Notes: generated by a model from the sequence alone, not told the origin. A DNA stretch of 28,880 nt from Oscillospiraceae bacterium (GCA_045542675.1 JAZQLL010000099.1:1-28880), one strand, 5' to 3'. Positions 1,887 to 26,127 are shown, counted from the stretch's first letter. Numbers and translations: made by a program.

Positions 1887-1890
1887 ATAA

Positions 1891-1924
1891 AAAGGGAGCT
1901 TCTCAAAAGAGAGGCTCCTTTTTG
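1891..1924 (+). terminator. Rho-independent terminator of tRNA-Leu
   Basis: GGAGCTTCTC-AAAA-GAGAGGCTCC followed by TTTTTG. Confidence 0.85.
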
Positions 1925-1943
1925 TTAGATTTATATGTAAGAC

Positions 1944-2079
1944 GGGTCGAACCTGAGAAGGTCCGCGCGTAAAAACAGTCCGGCGGACTGTTTTTAGCAA
2001 GGAGCGTGAGGGCCTGGGCCCGAGCGAGTAGTGTGCAAGGCGAAGCCGCCGCACACGCCGACCCCTGTGAAGCGCACCA
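1944..2079. repeat. Non-coding palindrome-rich element with tRNA-derived ends
   Basis: 1944-1955 is the exact reverse complement of tRNA 1860-1871; 2059-2079 matches tRNA 1866-1886 at 17/21 positions; internal hairpins at 1971-1995 and 2031-2056. Confidence 0.65.
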
Positions 2080-2083
2080 AAAT

Positions 2084-2120
2084 AAAAAGTCTTCTTCCAA
2101 AATAGAAGGAGACTTTTTTT
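2084..2120. terminator. Bidirectional terminator (element side and araC)
   Basis: AAAAAGTCTTCTTC-CAAAATA-GAAGGAGACTTTTTTT; A-run and T-run flanks. Confidence 0.8.
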
Positions 2121-3113: not shown

Positions 3114-5525
3114 ATGAAAAAACTTCCCGAACATCTTATTCCCAATTACGATGCCGCACCCAGCACTGCTAGTTATGTTCAGGGTGAGCACTACCGATTC
3201 ACAGTCCTAACCAGTCGCCTTTTAGGGCTCGGGTACAGTGAGGATGGCGTTTTTGAGGACAGGGCTACGCAGTCGGTTATATGCCGAAAACTCGATGTCA
3301 CAAAGTACACATCTGCCGAACAAAACGGCGTTTTAAGGCTCGAAACCGACGAGTTGCTCCTAATATACAAAATAGGCAGAGATTTCAAGAGTGGACTTAC
3401 CGTAACGCTTAAGCACCACAATTCCTGGAAAGAGCCCATCTGGGCTTACGGAGACGAGTGTGAAAATCTCGGCGGCACCGCACGCACACTTGACAGAGCC
3501 GATGGCGAAATTCCTCTTTCGCAAGGCGTTTGCGCAAAGTGTGGCTACGCCGCACTTGATGACTCGAGTTCGGGAATTATTTTAGACAGCGGAATGATAG
3601 AGCCGAGAAAAAAAGGCATAATTGATGTTTACTTTTTCGGCTACGGATTCGACTATATCTCGGCAGTGCGCGATTTAATGCGCCTTACGGGCGCTCCCCC
3701 GCTGCTTCCCGCGTTTGCGCTCGGAAACTGGTGGAGCCGCTACCACAAGTACACCCAGGACGAGTACATTAAGCTTATAGAACGTTATGAGAAAGAGGAT
3801 ATTCCCTTCTCGGTTGCCATTATAGATATGGACTGGCATCTCGTTGACATACCTAAAGAATACGGCAACGGATGGACGGGCTACACCTGGAACCGCGAAC
3901 TTTTCCCCGATTACAAGGCGTTCTTAAAGTTCCTTAAAAAGAAAGGGTACGCCGCGGGTCTTGCTGACCACCCTGCTCTCGGAGTTCGCGCTTTTGAGGA
4001 TTTCTATGAGGATATGGCAAAGGCTATGGGGGTTGACCCCGAAAGCCGCGAGGCTATCCCCTTTGACCTTAACAACGAGGATTTTATAAAGCCTTATTTT
4101 GAAATTTTGCACAACCGCTATGAAAGTGACGGTATTGATTTTTGGTGGATTGACTGGCAACAGGGCACGAGAAGTTCTTTAGAGGGACTTGACCCGCTCT
4201 GGCTCTTAAACCACTTCCACTCGCTTGACATCACGCGAAAGGGAAAGCGACCCTTCATTTACTCGCGCTTTGCAGGTCCAGGAAGTCAGAGATTTCCCAT
4301 CGGTTTCTCGGGCGATGCCTGGGTAACCTGGGATTCACTTAACTTCCAACCCAAGTTTACCGCAACTGCATCAAACATTGCTTATCCTTGGTGGAGCCAT
4401 GACATAGGCGGACACTGTTGCGGTTACCGTGACGACGAGTTAATGATGCGCTGGACTCAGCTCGGAACGTTCTCGCCGATAAATAAACTTCACAGCAGTT
4501 GGTTTGTATTCAACCGCCGCGAGCCCTGGTGCTTTAACACCGAGACTGAAGCGAGTATGAAGCAATTCCTGCGCCTTCGTCACGCGCTTTTCCCCTATCT
4601 CTACACAATGAACTGGCGTACACACAAAGAGCTTATTCCTTTAGTTTGCCCCATTTATTACTACTGTGACCCCGAGAAAGAGGCCACATTTAAGTACCAG
4701 AATTCCTTCTTCTTTGGAAGCGAGATGGTTATCTTCCCCATCACTGCTCCTTCCGACGATGTAACAAAACTTGGATGCGCCAAGGGTTATCTGCCCGAAG
4801 GAAACTGGGTTGACTTTTTCAGAGGCACTCGCTACAAGGGTGATCGAGAACTTTGCTTCTACCGAAACGGATTTGAGTACCCCGTTTTATGTAAGGCGGG
4901 CGCAATCGTTCCTATGAACACACTTCGCGAGCACGACAACTCCCTCGGCTCGTTTGAGAATATGGAAATAAGGGTATTCCCCGGCGCAGATGGGAAATTC
5001 GTTCTCTACGAGGATTTGGGCGAAGGAAACGGCTACAGGGACGGCGAGTTTGCGACTACCGAATATGCGCTTGAGTGGAGCAGCAATAAGGCGGAATTTA
5101 AAATTAATGCCGCCGAGGGCGACCTTTCGCTTATTCCCCAAAAGAGAAACTACACCCTCTGCTTCAGAGGTTTCTGCGAGGAAATTGAGGTTTCCTGCGA
5201 GCAAAACGGAAAACAAATTCCCTTTAACACCCGCTATGACGATGCCACCTGCTCTTTATATGTAACTGTCGATTCGGTTTCAACCGATGGTTATATTACT
5301 GTTACCCTCGAAAGCAAAATCAACAACTTTGCACCGAGTGACAAGAGCCTTTATGACAGAATGTACGATGTAATCCTAGGAGCACAGATGGATTATAACA
5401 CCAAGCAGCGCGTCTGGGAGCATCTTACAAGAGATGACCTAAACTCTGTTGAAAAACTCCAAAACGCGATTCTTGAGGGACTTTCTCCCGCTCTTATCGG
5501 CGCTATTGCTGAACTTTTAGGTTAA
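3114..5525 (+). CDS. Glycoside hydrolase family 31 (alpha-glucosidase/xylosidase-like, WIDWQQG-type subfamily)
   Basis: GNWWSRY, IIDMDWH, GWTGYTWN, nucleophile motif FWWIDWQQG (Asp codon 4152), acid/base FSGD (4314), WWSHDIGGH; no signal peptide; AGGAG RBS. Confidence 0.9.
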   Translation: MKKLPEHLIPNYDAAPSTASYVQGEHYRFTVLTSRLLGLGYSEDGVFEDRATQSVICRKLDVTKYTSAEQNGVLRLETDELLLIYKIGRDFKSGLTVTLKHHNSWKEPIWAYGDECENLGGTARTLDRADGEIPLSQGVCAKCGYAALDDSSSGIILDSGMIEPRKKGIIDVYFFGYGFDYISAVRDLMRLTGAPPLLPAFALGNWWSRYHKYTQDEYIKLIERYEKEDIPFSVAIIDMDWHLVDIPKEYGNGWTGYTWNRELFPDYKAFLKFLKKKGYAAGLADHPALGVRAFEDFYEDMAKAMGVDPESREAIPFDLNNEDFIKPYFEILHNRYESDGIDFWWIDWQQGTRSSLEGLDPLWLLNHFHSLDITRKGKRPFIYSRFAGPGSQRFPIGFSGDAWVTWDSLNFQPKFTATASNIAYPWWSHDIGGHCCGYRDDELMMRWTQLGTFSPINKLHSSWFVFNRREPWCFNTETEASMKQFLRLRHALFPYLYTMNWRTHKELIPLVCPIYYYCDPEKEATFKYQNSFFFGSEMVIFPITAPSDDVTKLGCAKGYLPEGNWVDFFRGTRYKGDRELCFYRNGFEYPVLCKAGAIVPMNTLREHDNSLGSFENMEIRVFPGADGKFVLYEDLGEGNGYRDGEFATTEYALEWSSNKAEFKINAAEGDLSLIPQKRNYTLCFRGFCEEIEVSCEQNGKQIPFNTRYDDATCSLYVTVDSVSTDGYITVTLESKINNFAPSDKSLYDRMYDVILGAQMDYNTKQRVWEHLTRDDLNSVEKLQNAILEGLSPALIGAIAELLG

Positions 5526-5527
5526 GT

Positions 5528-5560
5528 AAAAAGACCATAGGCACTGCCTATGGTCTTTTT
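5528..5560. terminator. Bidirectional terminator between convergent GH31 and cinA-sortase genes
   Basis: AAAAAGACCATAGGC-ACT-GCCTATGGTCTTTTT perfect 15-bp inverted repeat. Confidence 0.88.
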
Positions 5561-5564
5561 TGAT

Positions 5565-8210
5565 TTATTCGTTTACGCCCCCGGGAGTCAACTCGTTGCT
5601 ATCCGAAGGGGTGTCGGTAGGAGTGTCATTCGGGGTCTCATTCGGTGTTTCACTCGGAGTCTCACTAGGTGTTTCGCTCGGAGTTTCCGATGGAGTATCG
5701 CTAGGTGTTTCACTAGGGGTTTCCGAAGGAGTTTCACTTGGCGTTTCGCTCGGAGTCTGTGAAGGAGTTTCACTCGGGGTTTCTTCCTCGCTGCTCGGCG
5801 ATGAAGGAGTACTGCTGCTTGAAGACGAAGACTTGTTATCCGATGAGTAAGAGGGTCTCACGGGAGTGTTGGGTCTGGAAGCAATACTGCTATTCCAGAG
5901 TTTATTACTCGAGGATTCGTCTGAAGAATCGTTAAATTGATTATTGTTTCCCGTATTATGTGTTGCCTCATTTACCGCAACAGAATTATCCTCATTGGCT
6001 CTTACACGTCTTGCCATAACTACAAGGCGCTGACCGTCGAAATCGTAATAGCAGGTAGAGAGAGTGAGAATATTATCTGTACTTAAGACATCGACGGGAA
6101 TGTTGAATATGGATTCATTTCTTACGCGCCTTAAGAATGTATCAAACTCTCCCTCATCTTTAGGGTTGAGCATATTATAGTAGTCAAATACCGCACCGTT
6201 TTTGCTCTCAACATTACAGGTAAAGATGGCGAAAATTTTCCACTGAGATCTCTCGTAAACTGTGTCAAAACTTATAAGGGGGTGCTTTCTGTAATAATTG
6301 AGCGCATCGCTTCCCTTATAGTAGTTTTCAAGTTCCGAGAACATCTGGTCATCGCTCTTCATATTGTGTCCGTGAATTACGGTATTAAAATCGAGCGGAC
6401 TTATATTATTTCGGCTATCCATAAAGGGAACACCGTGGCGCTCCTTTTCGCCGTAGAAGTTATGGTTTAAATAGAAATCGTTATCGGTTGTCTGAACTAC
6501 GGGGTAGTTAAGCTTAGTTCCCTCTATTTCAATCCAACCCGCAATCTCCTTATTTTCCTGATACAAAATACCGAATTCATCAAGGTAATTTTTAGGATAA
6601 ACCAGGGACTCTGTGGGAATTTCCTCTTTAAGCTCGGCAAGATTTTGATAGAGGTTATCATTTTGCTTTATCGAAAGGAAGAATGTTGCGATATAGCATA
6701 CGGACACCAAAAGTGCTACGACCGCTACCAAAAATACGCTCTTTCTCACCTTTTCGGCGCCATTATCGGCTTTATTTGGGAAAATGCTTGCTAAAAAGCC
6801 TTTTTTCTTGGCTAAAACAGGGGCATCTGCATCGTCATTTTTCTGGGGAGCATTTTTTTCCTGCTCGTTCTTTTTAACGTTACTGAATATGAGTTTTCCC
6901 TTCATAGACTCGCGGCTCTCAATACTATTGGGAACCTCGCTTACGGGAAGCCTTTGTGAATTAAAGATAGCAAAGCCGTTCATTACGCGGCGTACCATAT
7001 CAAACGCATGCAAACTTGCAAGCTCCCTAATCTGCTCGCGGCTCTCCTTACCGGTTATGGCAAGTTCAAAGCGCTTTACCCAAGCAGTTTCGCGATTACA
7101 AACCGCCACAAACACAAGGCCGACCGGTTCACCGAGCATTGATGCAGGGCCGGCATAACCCGTTACCGAAACGCCAAAATCGGAATTTGCGGTATTCATT
7201 GCTCCTACCGCCATCTGAAGCGCGGTTTCGGCACTTACTGCGCCAAATTCACTCAAAGTCTGCTCATCTACACCGAGAATAAGGTTTTTAATACCCTCGG
7301 AGTAACTTGTGACACCGAACTCAAAGCAGAGCGAAGCGCCGGGGATTTCGGTTATTTTCTTTGAAATAAGTCCGCCTGTGCAGGATTCCGCAGTTGCAAT
7401 AGTCATTTTGTTAGCAACGAGTTCACTTACAACGGCGTGATGAATTGAGGGCTCATCGATGCCATAGATAACATCTCCGAGTCTTCTCTCTATCTCCTCT
7501 ACCGCCTGGTCTACCTCTCTGATTGCAACCTTGAAATCATCCGAACAAGAGGAAACGAAAATGTCTATTTTGCCGTTTGAAGCGTATGTAGCAACAGTCG
7601 GGCTTGTCCTTTCAATGAGATCGGAAAGCGACTGAGCGATAAGTGATTCGGTCATTCCAAAGACATTTACAGTTTTAGAAACGACAGTTTTGCCTGTCAT
7701 GCTCTTTAAAAAGGGCAGTACACTTCTCTCAAGCATGGGGCGAAGTTCACTCGGGGGGCCGGGGAGCAAAATTATGCACTGATTTCCACTCTTTAAAATT
7801 GCGCCCGCCGAAAGACCGACGTCGTTTTTTATTACAACACTTCCTTCGGGCACCATAGCCTGACGGATATTATTATCCGCCATTTGCTCGCCTTTTCTAA
7901 AGAAATACGCCTTTATTTTCTCTAAACTCGGCTCGTCAACTACCTGATTTATGGAAAGCAGTTCACACACGGCATCTTTTGTGACATCATCGGGTGTGGG
8001 ACCGAGTCCACCTGTCATAATTATGATATTACTACGACCGAGTGCGGCGGCAACAACTGCCTTAAGGTCCTTTTTACTATCTCTTACAGAGGTCTGAAAG
8101 GAAACCTCAACTCCTATTGCACGAAGCTCCTCGGATATGAACTGGGCATTAGTATTAAGTTGTTGGCCTGTAAGTATTTCCGAGCCTACGGTAATGATTT
8201 CTGATCTCAT
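5565..8210 (-). CDS. cinA: Fusion protein: CinA (COG1058 domain + PncC NMN deamidase, aa 1-410), linker, TM helix (aa ~491-512), class B sortase (aa ~549-738), Ser/ETPS-rich tail
   Basis: EIITVGSEILTG, GGLGPTPDDVT, ATAESCTGG and SVTGYAGP are CinA motifs. GWIEIEGTKLNYPVVQ, VIHGHNM, LTLSTC and RLVVMAR are SrtB motifs with His/Cys/Arg. One uninterrupted 881-codon ORF. Confidence 0.88.
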   Translation of the reverse strand: MRSEIITVGSEILTGQQLNTNAQFISEELRAIGVEVSFQTSVRDSKKDLKAVVAAALGRSNIIIMTGGLGPTPDDVTKDAVCELLSINQVVDEPSLEKIKAYFFRKGEQMADNNIRQAMVPEGSVVIKNDVGLSAGAILKSGNQCIILLPGPPSELRPMLERSVLPFLKSMTGKTVVSKTVNVFGMTESLIAQSLSDLIERTSPTVATYASNGKIDIFVSSCSDDFKVAIREVDQAVEEIERRLGDVIYGIDEPSIHHAVVSELVANKMTIATAESCTGGLISKKITEIPGASLCFEFGVTSYSEGIKNLILGVDEQTLSEFGAVSAETALQMAVGAMNTANSDFGVSVTGYAGPASMLGEPVGLVFVAVCNRETAWVKRFELAITGKESREQIRELASLHAFDMVRRVMNGFAIFNSQRLPVSEVPNSIESRESMKGKLIFSNVKKNEQEKNAPQKNDDADAPVLAKKKGFLASIFPNKADNGAEKVRKSVFLVAVVALLVSVCYIATFFLSIKQNDNLYQNLAELKEEIPTESLVYPKNYLDEFGILYQENKEIAGWIEIEGTKLNYPVVQTTDNDFYLNHNFYGEKERHGVPFMDSRNNISPLDFNTVIHGHNMKSDDQMFSELENYYKGSDALNYYRKHPLISFDTVYERSQWKIFAIFTCNVESKNGAVFDYYNMLNPKDEGEFDTFLRRVRNESIFNIPVDVLSTDNILTLSTCYYDFDGQRLVVMARRVRANEDNSVAVNEATHNTGNNNQFNDSSDESSSNKLWNSSIASRPNTPVRPSYSSDNKSSSSSSSTPSSPSSEEETPSETPSQTPSETPSETPSETPSETPSDTPSETPSETPSETPSETPNETPNDTPTDTPSDSNELTPGGVNE
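5604..5783 (-). repeat. 15 tandem 12-bp units encoding [EQD]TP[SNT] (aa 810-869 of the fusion)
   Basis: 15 units counted directly, e.g. GAAACCCCGAGT; synonymous codons vary between units. Confidence 0.95.
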
Positions 8211-12103: not shown

Positions 12104-13756
12104 TTAGTTTTGTGCGGGCTTAAAGCTATCCTTAAGGGTTACTGCTCTATTAAAGCAACCCTCGTTTTTACTATCCTTACAGAAATATCCCATACGGACA
12201 AACTGGAACTTCTCCCCTACCTTTGCATCCTCTAACGCCTTTTCAAGCTTTGCATTCTCGCAAATCTTAAGCGACTCGGGATTAAGGTAATCAAGGTAAT
12301 AGGTTCCCTCGGGAATGTCGATAAGATTATCTCTTGAGAAAAGTCTATCATAGAGACGAAGCTCGGCATCGATGCAGTTTTCTTGAGAAACCCAATGAAT
12401 AGTTCCCTTAATCTTTCTGCCGTCTACGGGGTTGCCGTTCTTTGTTTCTAAATCGCAGGTACAAAGGATTTCCTTTATCTCGCCGTTTTCATCCTTTACA
12501 ATCTCATTGCAACGAATTATATAGGCGCCCATAAGTCTTACCTCGCCATCGGGCTTGAGTCTGAAGAACTTGGGTGGCGGAACTTCTGCAAAATCGCTCT
12601 TCTCAATATAGAGATTGCGGGTAAATGCAACCTTTCGAGTACCTGCGTTTTCATCATTGGGGTTATTGGGAAGGTCAAAATACTCAGTCTGACCTTCGGG
12701 GTAGTTTGTAATGGTAACCTTTACAGGATCGCAAACGGCAATTCTGCGGGTAGCGTTAAGATTGAGTTCTTCTCTCAGGCAATGCTCTAAGAGGGCAAAA
12801 TCCACAACGCTATATGCCTTGGAAACACCTGCTCTGCCCACAAAGTCAAGGATTGAACTAGCGGTAAATCCACGTCTTCTAAGGCCACAAAGGGTGGGCA
12901 TTCTAGGGTCATCCCAACCATCGACACGTTTTGTTTCAACAAGCTCACGAAGATAGCGCTTACTCATTACAACGCCGGTTACATTAAGTCTTGCAAACTC
13001 ATACTGATGGGGCTCCTTCTCGAAGCCTATATTCTGCACTACCCATTCATAGAGGGGTCTGTGATTTTCAAATTCAAGCGAGCAAAGCGAGTGGGAAATA
13101 CCCTCTAAAGCGTCCTGAATGGGATGCGCAAAGTCATAGAGGGGATAAATGCACCACTTATTGCCCTGTCTATGATGAGGCTGACGGCTGATTCTGTAAA
13201 TTGCAGGGTCGCGCATATTCATATTAGGCGATGCCATATCAATTTTTGCACGAAGTGTGCAGGCGCCATCCTCAAACTCGCCGTTCTTCATTTTCTCGAA
13301 AAGTTCAAGATTTTCCTCTACACTTCTGTTTCTATAGGGACTCTCTTTGCCGGGCTCGGTAAGTGTACCGCGGTACTCTCTCATTTCGTCTGCCGAAAGG
13401 TCGCAAACATAAGCCTTGCCCTCGCGGATGAGTTTTACCGCAAATTCATAGCATTTCTCAAAGTAGTCCGAGCCGTAGAAAATATTATCAGGCTCGGCGC
13501 CAAGCCAGTGAAGATCCTCTTCAATAGCCTTAACATACTCGTCGTCTTCTCTTGCGGGGTTGGTATCGTCATATCGAAGGTTAAACTTTCCGCCGTACTT
13601 TTTCGCGGTCGCGTAGTTTATATAAATTGCCTTTGCGCTTCCGATATGAAGATAACCGTTAGGCTCAGGGGGAAAACGGGTGTGAATTTTCTGCACCTTA
13701 CCCTCGGCAATATCGTTATCTATAATTTCGTGAATAAAATTTGATGCAATTTCCAA
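12104..13756 (-). CDS. glnS: Glutamine--tRNA ligase
   Basis: TRFPPEPNGYLHIGSAK, RAKIDMASPNMNMRDP, WCIYPLYDFAH, VMSKR, DGWDDPRMPT, FQFVRMGYF; TTG start. Confidence 0.95.
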   Translation of the reverse strand: MEIASNFIHEIIDNDIAEGKVQKIHTRFPPEPNGYLHIGSAKAIYINYATAKKYGGKFNLRYDDTNPAREDDEYVKAIEEDLHWLGAEPDNIFYGSDYFEKCYEFAVKLIREGKAYVCDLSADEMREYRGTLTEPGKESPYRNRSVEENLELFEKMKNGEFEDGACTLRAKIDMASPNMNMRDPAIYRISRQPHHRQGNKWCIYPLYDFAHPIQDALEGISHSLCSLEFENHRPLYEWVVQNIGFEKEPHQYEFARLNVTGVVMSKRYLRELVETKRVDGWDDPRMPTLCGLRRRGFTASSILDFVGRAGVSKAYSVVDFALLEHCLREELNLNATRRIAVCDPVKVTITNYPEGQTEYFDLPNNPNDENAGTRKVAFTRNLYIEKSDFAEVPPPKFFRLKPDGEVRLMGAYIIRCNEIVKDENGEIKEILCTCDLETKNGNPVDGRKIKGTIHWVSQENCIDAELRLYDRLFSRDNLIDIPEGTYYLDYLNPESLKICENAKLEKALEDAKVGEKFQFVRMGYFCKDSKNEGCFNRAVTLKDSFKPAQN

Positions 13757-19776: not shown

Positions 19777-19852
19777 GATCCATTAGCTCAGTTGGCAGAG
19801 CACTTGACTTTTAATCAAGGTGTCCGGAGTTCGAATCTCCGATGGATCACCA
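19777..19852 (+). tRNA. tRNA-Lys (anticodon TTT)
   Basis: 76 nt; acceptor GATCCAT/ATGGATC, D-arm GCTCAGTTGGCAGAGC, anticodon arm CTTGA-CTTTTAA-TCAAG, T-arm CGGAG-TTCGAAT-CTCCG, ACCA. Confidence 0.97.
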
Positions 19853-25104: not shown

Positions 25105-25114
25105 AAAAACTACA

Positions 25115-25208
25115 CCTCATCTTTCGGATCATCCGCAGGATTTGGCACCTTGAAAACTCAGGTTGCCGGGCTTCACAGGGCCTGTCCCCTCCACCACTCT
25201 TGATAAGG
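25115..25208 (-). ncRNA. SAM-I (S-box) riboswitch aptamer
   Basis: Minus strand CTTATCAAGAGTGGTGGAGGGGACAGGCCCTGTGAAGCCCGGCAACC...GGTGCCAAATCC...GAAAGATGAGG; directly upstream of metK. Confidence 0.95.
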
Positions 25209-25234
25209 AATGATATTCTTTTTTGTTCGTTCTT

Positions 25235-25973: not shown

Positions 25974-25991
25974 GTAAAATACAAAATGCGC

Positions 25992-26119
25992 AATACACTA
26001 TTCCTTCCGGACTATACCGTCGGTTACGGATTCTAACCGTATCCTGCTTTCGCTCGCGGACTTATTGCTCTTGGCACTTCACCGCCGGTGGAGAATTTCA
26101 CTCCGCCCCTAACTGTATT
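25992..26119 (-). ncRNA. FMN (RFN) riboswitch aptamer
   Basis: Minus strand AGGGGCGGAGTGAAATTCTCCACCGGCGGT...AGTCCGCGAGC...CGGTTAGAATCCG...CCGACGGTATAGTCCGGA. Confidence 0.92.
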
Positions 26120-26127
26120 ACACTGAG

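Follow-up and report, generated by a model that had tools for sequence, protein, structure and literature searches.

The window, that is, the whole 28,880-nucleotide stretch of DNA analysed here, is a 28.9-kb contig of an Oscillospiraceae MAG of 1.69 Mb in 228 contigs (G000). It contains a tRNA-Leu(TAG) gene that is followed on the same (+) strand, 51 nt past its end, by a module of approximately 140 nt (1937–2079), with genes for an AraC-type regulator, a GH31 glycosidase and CinA around it. Along the + strand, the locus reads as promoter, tRNA, first terminator (T1), module and second terminator (T2), with no internal promoter. The features are as follows:

1763–1792, + strand: sigma-70-type promoter of the tRNA-Leu unit (TTGACA, 18 nt, TATAAT, with TG), 12/12 match
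1804–1886, + strand: tRNA-Leu(TAG) gene with encoded CCA, the template of both module arms (ARAGORN; Rfam tRNA model, 55.6 bits)
1890–1923, + strand: terminator T1, predicted, a 15-pair hairpin and then TTTTT
1937–1955, + strand: antisense arm, the reverse complement of tRNA nt 1860–1878 at 17/19 positions, read from the sequence
1951–1962, + strand: hairpin P2, ACCT-GAGA-AGGT, capped by a loop of the GNRA type and closed by a pair that exchanges between CG and UA; pairing in 97.9% of cells
1963–2002, + strand: P3, in which a covarying lower stem leads through an internal loop to the conserved hairpin AAAAACAGTCC-GGC-GGACTGTTTTT (1971–1995), from fold and alignment
2005–2026, + strand: P4 hairpin CGU..GGGC-CUGG-GCCC..GCG, variable in length and sequence, poorly aligned here and weakly supported
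2031–2056, + strand: P5 hairpin GTGTGC..GGC-GAA-GCC..GCACAC, which includes GCGAAGC and is conserved in the window's subfamily
2059–2079, + strand: direct copy of the tRNA 3' end (3' part of the T loop, 3' strands of the T stem and acceptor stem, ACCA), 17/21 positions
2084–2118, + strand: terminator T2, predicted, a 14-pair hairpin and then a long T run

Behind each of the 2 CCA ends, that of the tRNA and that of the direct copy, an A-run leads up to a terminator-like hairpin (T1 and T2, respectively), as a sequence-only reading of this DNA had stated. No promoter-like site lies on the + strand between T1 and the module, the sole upstream one being that at 1763–1792. The same reading had seen neither an ORF nor an integrase in the element, and both statements held: the ORFs over the module are mechanical only and have no Pfam matches, their frames are disrupted by indels of 1 and 2 nt relative to the copy in a genome of the same genus (G006), and no tyrosine recombinase (PF00589) was matched on the 28.9-kb contig. 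A coding element was rejected on the grounds that such ORFs match no Pfam family and their frame is not conserved.

Several other features of the window were recorded. At 1748–1780, a 13-pair hairpin (aatgccccgat..atcggggcatta) has a loop that contains TTGACA, the −35 box of the tRNA-Leu promoter, and is probably the terminator of the upstream 482-aa ORF, in which no Pfam domain was found. On the − strand, there are a SAM/S-box riboswitch (25114–25209, 81.5 bits) and an FMN riboswitch (25991–26120, 91.5 bits). The + strand also carries a tRNA-Lys(TTT) gene (19777–19852), behind which there is no module (9/17 for the direct copy and 8/12 for the antisense arm).

Both ends of the module derive from the tRNA gene. 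The sequence GGGTCGAACCTG at 1944–1955 is an exact 12-nt reverse complement of 1860–1871, in the T arm, as had been pointed out, and the match extends to 19 nt (17/19), so that the inverted repeat covers the 5' strand of the T stem, the T loop, the 3' strand of the T stem and the first acceptor bases. When 1 mismatch is allowed, the window has 2 matches versus 0.12 expected. The repeat of the tRNA 3' end at 2059–2079 was likewise correctly described as a 17/21 match (to 1866–1886), with all differences in the acceptor strand: it consists of 2 exact blocks of 10 and 7 nt, and its 4 mismatches are clustered, TACC being replaced by GAAG. The direct-copy pattern occurs twice in the window versus 0 expected. 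The 2 arms can in turn pair with each other, GGGTCG (1944–1949) forming the 5' strand and CGACCC (2059–2064) the 3' strand of a clamp helix, P1.

With GAAG in place of TACC in its acceptor part, the 3' arm in the window is an imperfect mimic of the tRNA end. The suggestion that GAAGCGCACCA might match another tRNA found no support among the 41 tRNA/tmRNA genes of G000 or in 400 genomes of the order. None of the 41 genes is for a tRNA starting with GCGCTTC, the partner strand of the GAAG block, and the 18-mer CCCCTGTGAAGCGCACCA was absent, at up to 1 mismatch, from all 400 other genomes of the order. A foreign tRNA end as the source of GAAGCGCACCA was rejected on these results. Because no donor tRNA was found and the G006 copy shares the block, we regard GAAG as a lineage-specific change (G000/G006). 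In most copies of the module, the acceptor strand and the NCCA are unpaired.

Folding of the + strand between 1940 and 2082 gave a computed free energy of −63.1 kcal/mol (z = −3.9) and 5 predicted helices, P1 to P5, in which the hairpin AAAAACAGUCC-GGC-GGACUGUUUUU, of 11–12 bp, forms the upper part of P3. Across the family, this core hairpin is conserved as AAAACAGTCC-NNN-GGACTGTTTT. The predicted fold bears out the earlier proposal that the ends pair as GGGTCG/CGACCC and enclose an 11-bp hairpin and GTGTGC...GCGAAGC...GCACAC. A covariance model (R1) built from an alignment of 13 long-type copies (A1) yielded 122 hits in 100 contigs outside its training set, and approximately 56 of these hits are distinct and full-length. 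The covariation that the sequence-only reading had proposed to look for is present in the alignment: 93.5% of the cells are paired and 18 of the 25 pairs have changed on both sides, values that none of 500 shuffles matched, and controls in which the partners were slid were 38–51% paired. The lower P3 stem, which is not tRNA-derived, exchanges freely among GC, CG, UA and AU, and P4 and P5 vary in sequence and length across copies and remain hairpins. Compensatory hairpin variants are also found in the copies on another contig of G000, C76 (AAAGGTCC/GGACCTTT and AAACAATCC/GGATTGTTT). Two helices call for a qualified reading: both arms being copies of the tRNA, covariation in P1 does not count as independent evidence, and part of the near-invariance seen for the upper hairpin in the large alignment arises by construction, because the loci were fetched by exact hairpin match.

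The fold is strand specific. G-U outnumbers A-C by 18 to 5 in P1, 8 to 0 in P2, 19 to 6 in lower P3 and 70 to 3 in upper P3, indicating that the folded strand is the strand of the tRNA. The loops are of the GNRA (GAGA, GUGA) and GNA/GAA types. Loops of the d(GCGAAGC) type are very stable in DNA, and the G-T bias together with stable GNA/GNRA-type loops would fit a folded single strand of DNA equally well.

The whole element is single-copy in G000. A homologue 83% identical to it lies behind tRNA-Leu(TAG) in G006, and one from another family of the order (G053) lies behind tRNA-Leu(CAG), with an antisense arm and a 3' copy matched to that tRNA. In total, we collected 84 distinct tRNA-plus-module instances representing 15 isotypes, mainly from Oscillospirales-type Clostridia and with a common layout: tRNA, terminator, short spacer, antisense arm copied from the T arm, hairpin core, direct copy and terminator. 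The search for homologues and for tRNA adjacency suggested by the sequence-only reading thus returned many relatives with the layout of the module, each adjoining a tRNA (84 loci). The inner hairpin, AAACAGTCC-NNN-GGACTGTTT, is present in 65 of the 401 genomes sampled from the order. A tRNA gene lies less than 350 nt upstream on the same strand at 37 of the 51 distinct hairpin sites first collected, and 300–350 nt or less upstream, again on the same strand, at 41 of 91 hairpin sites on named contigs from a scan of public genomes (mostly Acutalibacteraceae, Ruminococcus, Oscillospiraceae, Faecousia and other Clostridia MAGs).

The length of the direct copy varies little. Exact copies measure 18 nt (n = 17), 19 nt (n = 16), 20 nt (n = 4) or 21 nt (n = 8), a few have 16–17 or 22–29 nt, and 29 are worn; the family mode is thus 18–19 nt exact, with 17/21 in the window. 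The antisense arm spans tRNA nucleotides at approximately 12–26 from the 3' end, at times reaching 5–7. Within G000, modules are found on 4 contigs: besides the one in the window (C99), there is one behind tRNA-Leu(GAG) that has lost its 3' copy (C52), a pair of tandem modules behind tRNA-Arg(ACG) (C76) and one at a contig end (C13). At 12165–12480 of C76, we observed a third subtype, with the 3' copy reduced to GAGTCCC and with inner hairpins that are compensatory variants. Rfam searches with 1937–2079 returned no family at the gathering threshold or at E values up to 10, and none was returned for the short and long repeat types either.

Comparison of copies behind different tRNA genes allowed us to follow the arms separately from the core. 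In G301, a core of the short type, at least approximately 90% identical, stands behind tRNA-Tyr, tRNA-Gln, tRNA-Ser and tRNA-Leu, with arms of its own in each case, and the same combination of a shared core and tRNA-matched arms is found in G132 (Thr, Pro), G327 (Arg, Leu) and G128 (2 Leu genes). As judged from these sequences, a unit at a new tRNA has both of its arms renewed from that tRNA. At both tRNA genes without an encoded CCA (L031 and L170), the direct copy also lacks CCA (2/2), implying that the copy is templated by the DNA of the gene rather than by the mature tRNA. Templating by mature tRNA, through reverse transcription of a PBS-like site, is rejected for now on the ground that CCA-less genes give CCA-less copies.

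The module is also a variable occupant of its sites. Among the 8 tRNA-Leu(TAG) loci read in the genus, 2 carry it (G000 and G006), and at the other 6 the terminator runs directly into unrelated DNA. The empty-site alleles that the earlier reading had proposed to look for thus exist in related species, at 6/8 of these loci. Tandem arrays of 2–3 units are frequent (L035, L036, L051, L098, L159 and L188); that of L098, with 3 units at 5211–5749, belongs to Ruminococcus sp. JE7B6 (NZ_CP162391.1). Some arrays (L012, L047 and L049) finish with an additional, truncated unit made up of a copy, a terminator, a spacer and an antisense arm, and worn copies are present in the family. Identity continues through the terminator in approximately one quarter of the copies; in the others, it breaks off at the tRNA end or a few bases from it. 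A comparison of G006 and G008 for the ancestral terminator is not decisive, because the DNA that they share after the CCA belongs to another repeat family, which also confounds G008 as an empty-site reference for T2. This second repeat family of the genus consists of a terminator hairpin and then a long inverted repeat rich in 'acttattacctcttacttcttcac...'. It sits straight after tRNA or module CCA ends at L060 (G008), L061 (G006), L018 (G007), L019 (G001) and L022 (G006:C32).

These units are built like the tRNA-linked repeats (TLRs) of E. coli, which were described in 1978 and have no function assigned (PMC8144298; Egan and Landy 1978); our literature search on tRNA-linked repeats and RtT RNA returned E. 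coli work only (PMC8144298). The E. coli TLRs lie in tRNA or rRNA operons, downstream of tRNA genes as well as 5S genes (PMC8144298, citing Egan and Landy 1978 and Rudd 1999), and number 22 units at 10 loci, with 1–5 units per locus; their last 18–19 bp are those of the 3' end of the gene directly upstream, and the length of the copy is near-constant (PMC8144298). Examples are the 178-bp units of tyrT-tyrV, corresponding to RtT RNA (rttR, RF00391), and rrA/rrB/rrF behind 5S rRNA. Dual terminators and read-through transcripts are known for the E. coli TLRs, and rrA/rrB/rrF and RtT are transcribed with the upstream gene by read-through and processed to small RNA (PMC8144298). In the K-12 tyrT-tyrV region, which we read for comparison, each rttR unit starts with GGGGAAGGAT, antisense to the end of the T loop, the T stem and the start of the acceptor of tRNA-Tyr, contains hairpins of the GCGAAGC and CCGCAG types, and closes with 19 nt copied from the 3' end of tRNA-Tyr.

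The Clostridial module and the E. coli TLRs thus share their position on the same strand directly behind a tRNA gene (or, for TLRs, also a 5S gene) and between 2 terminators, a 3' end that repeats the last 18–19 nt of that gene, and an occurrence in tandem arrays and at several loci per genome, represented here by C99, C52, C76 and C13 of G000 and by the arrays of 2–3 units in its relatives. In rttR, the unit moreover begins with an antisense copy of the T stem and acceptor, as the module does. Unlike the E. coli TLRs, the module has its own core hairpin, AAAACAGTCC/GGACTGTTTT, and is found in Clostridia rather than enterobacteria.

At the level of sequence, the 2 groups are set apart. RF00391 had no hit in the window at E values up to 10 and none in G000 at E values up to 1, and its end-to-end alignment to a sister subtype of the module scored 13.2 bits (E = 4.2), compared with a gathering score of 45 bits, which led us to reject membership in the Rfam RtT family. 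In the reverse direction, the 4 best hits of R1 on the tyrT region are the 4 rttR units (7.6–9 bits), which are not counted as homology since such low scores possibly come from the tRNA-derived ends alone. The element in the window is classed as a TLR on the basis of the layout shared with the E. coli TLRs, and not as a member of the Rfam RtT family; it is a new sequence family of a kind that is known but unexplained. A match to an already described repeat family, which had been named as an outcome that would refute the initial idea, was accordingly obtained for the layout and not for the sequence family, which is new.

The reading that we favour, with modest confidence, is that the module is a protein-less cassette of the TLR type residing in the tail of the tRNA transcription unit, spreading at the DNA level, co-transcribed with the tRNA and folded on the tRNA strand. 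Such a cassette would pass from the tail of one tRNA gene to that of another and form tandem arrays on the way. At each new site, both arms would be templated by the new tRNA gene; the comparison reveals this pattern rather than the steps or the enzyme behind it. The arms would then pair as P1 and clamp a core made of P2 with its GNRA loop, P3 with the AAAACAGTCC/GGACTGTTTT hairpin, P4 and P5. From the layout and by analogy with E. coli rrA/rrB/rrF, we infer that transcription would start at the tRNA promoter, read through T1 and stop at T2. The product would be a compact RNA with a tRNA-like 3' end, which is why the tRNA 3'-end machinery could trim and stabilise or protect it. Transcription, processing and any RNA function of the Clostridial module are thus putative. 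The initial proposal of a non-autonomous tRNA-targeting mini-element or structured ncRNA stands in so far as the module is protein-less, structured, tied to tRNA genes and equipped with many homologues; the mobilisation in trans that was part of it is plausible.

The strongest competing reading casts the module as a mobile, non-autonomous DNA cassette, active as a folded single strand and moved by a recombinase supplied in trans, any RNA being a by-product. The P1 clamp would in this case rebuild a duplex T loop/T stem, at which a recombinase from elsewhere would exchange strands with the tail of the tRNA gene. We consider this possible, if on balance improbable. Much of the evidence given above fits it as well, namely the conserved cores with swapped arms behind different tRNAs, the empty sites, tandem arrays and truncated extra units, the copying from DNA rather than mature tRNA, the strand-specific fold and the stability of d(GCGAAGC)-type loops in DNA. 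It can also draw on the 10-3-10 palindrome, which is conserved in sequence like a protein-binding site and recurs in non-tRNA repeats and in other phyla. The closest known counterparts would be integron attC sites and the attP hairpin of CTX phage, which are likewise imperfect palindromes conserved in structure above sequence, strand specific and flanked by a short repeat that the target also carries; the module differs from both in that its arms are taken from the target instead of being fixed and in that it has no cargo gene. Against the single-stranded DNA cassette stand the lack of a tyrosine recombinase on the window's contig and the results of the transposase searches described below. 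An exchange of the attP type inside the tRNA would, moreover, create chimeric tRNAs whenever the target changes, the renewal of the antisense arm is left unexplained, and E. coli units of the same build are read in print as small RNAs.

Candidate partner enzymes were sought in the 5 genomes richest in the hairpin (18–35 copies). None of the 5 encodes a Y1 (HUH) transposase (PF01797), a domain found in one non-carrier relative and, in one copy, in G000, and a single one of them has IS110-type genes (PF01548). In these high-copy genomes, many of the hairpins belong to other repeat families, such as that of G294. REP and BIME elements with their RAYT, MITEs, and Correia, RUP and BOX elements are, like the module, short, non-coding, multi-copy, hairpin-forming and intergenic, whereas the module lies strictly behind tRNA genes, has arms copied from its target and possesses no fixed terminal inverted repeats. 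A derivative of REP/RAYT or IS200/IS605 was rejected for want of a Y1 transposase in the 5 high-copy genomes, and an IS110/IS1111 guide-RNA element was rejected with its DEDD recombinase (PF01548) present in just 1 of the 5.

The hairpin itself is also found in repeats away from tRNA genes and in other phyla. In G294 (L067–L094), a multi-hairpin repeat of approximately 200 nt is present in 28 copies, all of them away from tRNA genes; it has 2 building blocks in common with the tRNA modules, the AAACAGTCC..GGACTGTTT hairpin and another of the ccgctttCCGCAGaaagcgg type, and matches no Rfam family. The exact 24-nt hairpin was detected in Alphaproteobacteria (Paracoccus, Palleronia and others; L125, L126, L143, L144 and L147) and in a Prevotella MAG (L095, L111 and L130). 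In L147, it is located within an insertion that interrupts the reading frame of an IS5-like transposase, and in L126 its flanks (GAGCGTGAAGA..TTAGCGA) are identical to those of the tRNA modules. The Rfam model of the Brucella sRNA CI153 (RF02604) holds a nearly identical hairpin (GGaaauCaGuCCACUGGaCuGauuuC) and matches L112:634–670 at 17.6 bits (E = 0.025), well under its gathering score.

Far weaker than the TLR-type cassette is the possibility that the locus is the worn remainder of an integrase-encoding island or prophage in the tRNA gene, with attL and attR retained and the interior deleted, as in a CIME; we regard this as very unlikely. The direct repeat does start in the T loop, a classical crossover sublocation, the interval between the repeats is free of genes, and G000 has 6 tyrosine recombinase genes, every one on another contig. 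The resemblance to the att sites of tyrosine-integrase elements and CIMEs extends to the intact tRNA and to the empty sites. The module differs from them in lacking an integrase, in having a conserved folded core, an antisense arm and a length of approximately 140 nt, and in that both of its arms change with the host tRNA. An inner core that is conserved and covarying at no fewer than 84 loci and 15 isotypes is not a random leftover, att sites have no need of an antisense arm matched to their own tRNA, the near-constant 18–21 nt of the copy resembles E. coli TLRs, and no integrase adjoins any of the loci inspected by eye. The attL/attR layout of an integrative element that had been proposed for the locus was therefore abandoned: an antisense arm made for each tRNA, a copy of nearly constant length and arms swapped between loci are unlike a fixed attP, and an integrase att scar was rejected with no PF00589 match on the contig and with inner DNA that is a folded conserved core. 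A chance resemblance or a private local duplication, in keeping with the single copy of the whole element in G000, is scarcely credible given the 0.12 and 0 repeats expected by chance and the homologues in other genera and families.

The family described here adds a module of the TLR build, distinct from that of E. coli, to the genomes of gut and rumen Clostridia. Its units are at risk of being mistaken in annotation for integration scars, pseudo-tRNAs or att sites. More tentatively still than for the single-stranded DNA cassette, we raise the doubtful but wider idea that TLR-type modules, the Clostridial family and E. coli RtT alike, form one cross-phylum class of protein-less mobile cassettes. 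If so, insertion behind tRNA and 5S genes would take place at the DNA level, with an antisense 'guide' arm and a direct copy of 18–21 nt templated anew from each target, and a host factor would take hold of the AAAACAGTCC/GGACTGTTTT hairpin. This hairpin also occurs in repeats unlinked to tRNAs, in DNA of Alphaproteobacteria and in an sRNA family of Brucella. Collectively, the comparisons place constraints on any mechanism: the arms are copied anew for each host tRNA, the copy is made from DNA, its length is nearly constant at 18–21 nt, and it is the tRNA strand that folds. With Ruminococcus sp. JE7B6, a carrier that is in culture and has a complete genome, the question can be taken to the bench.
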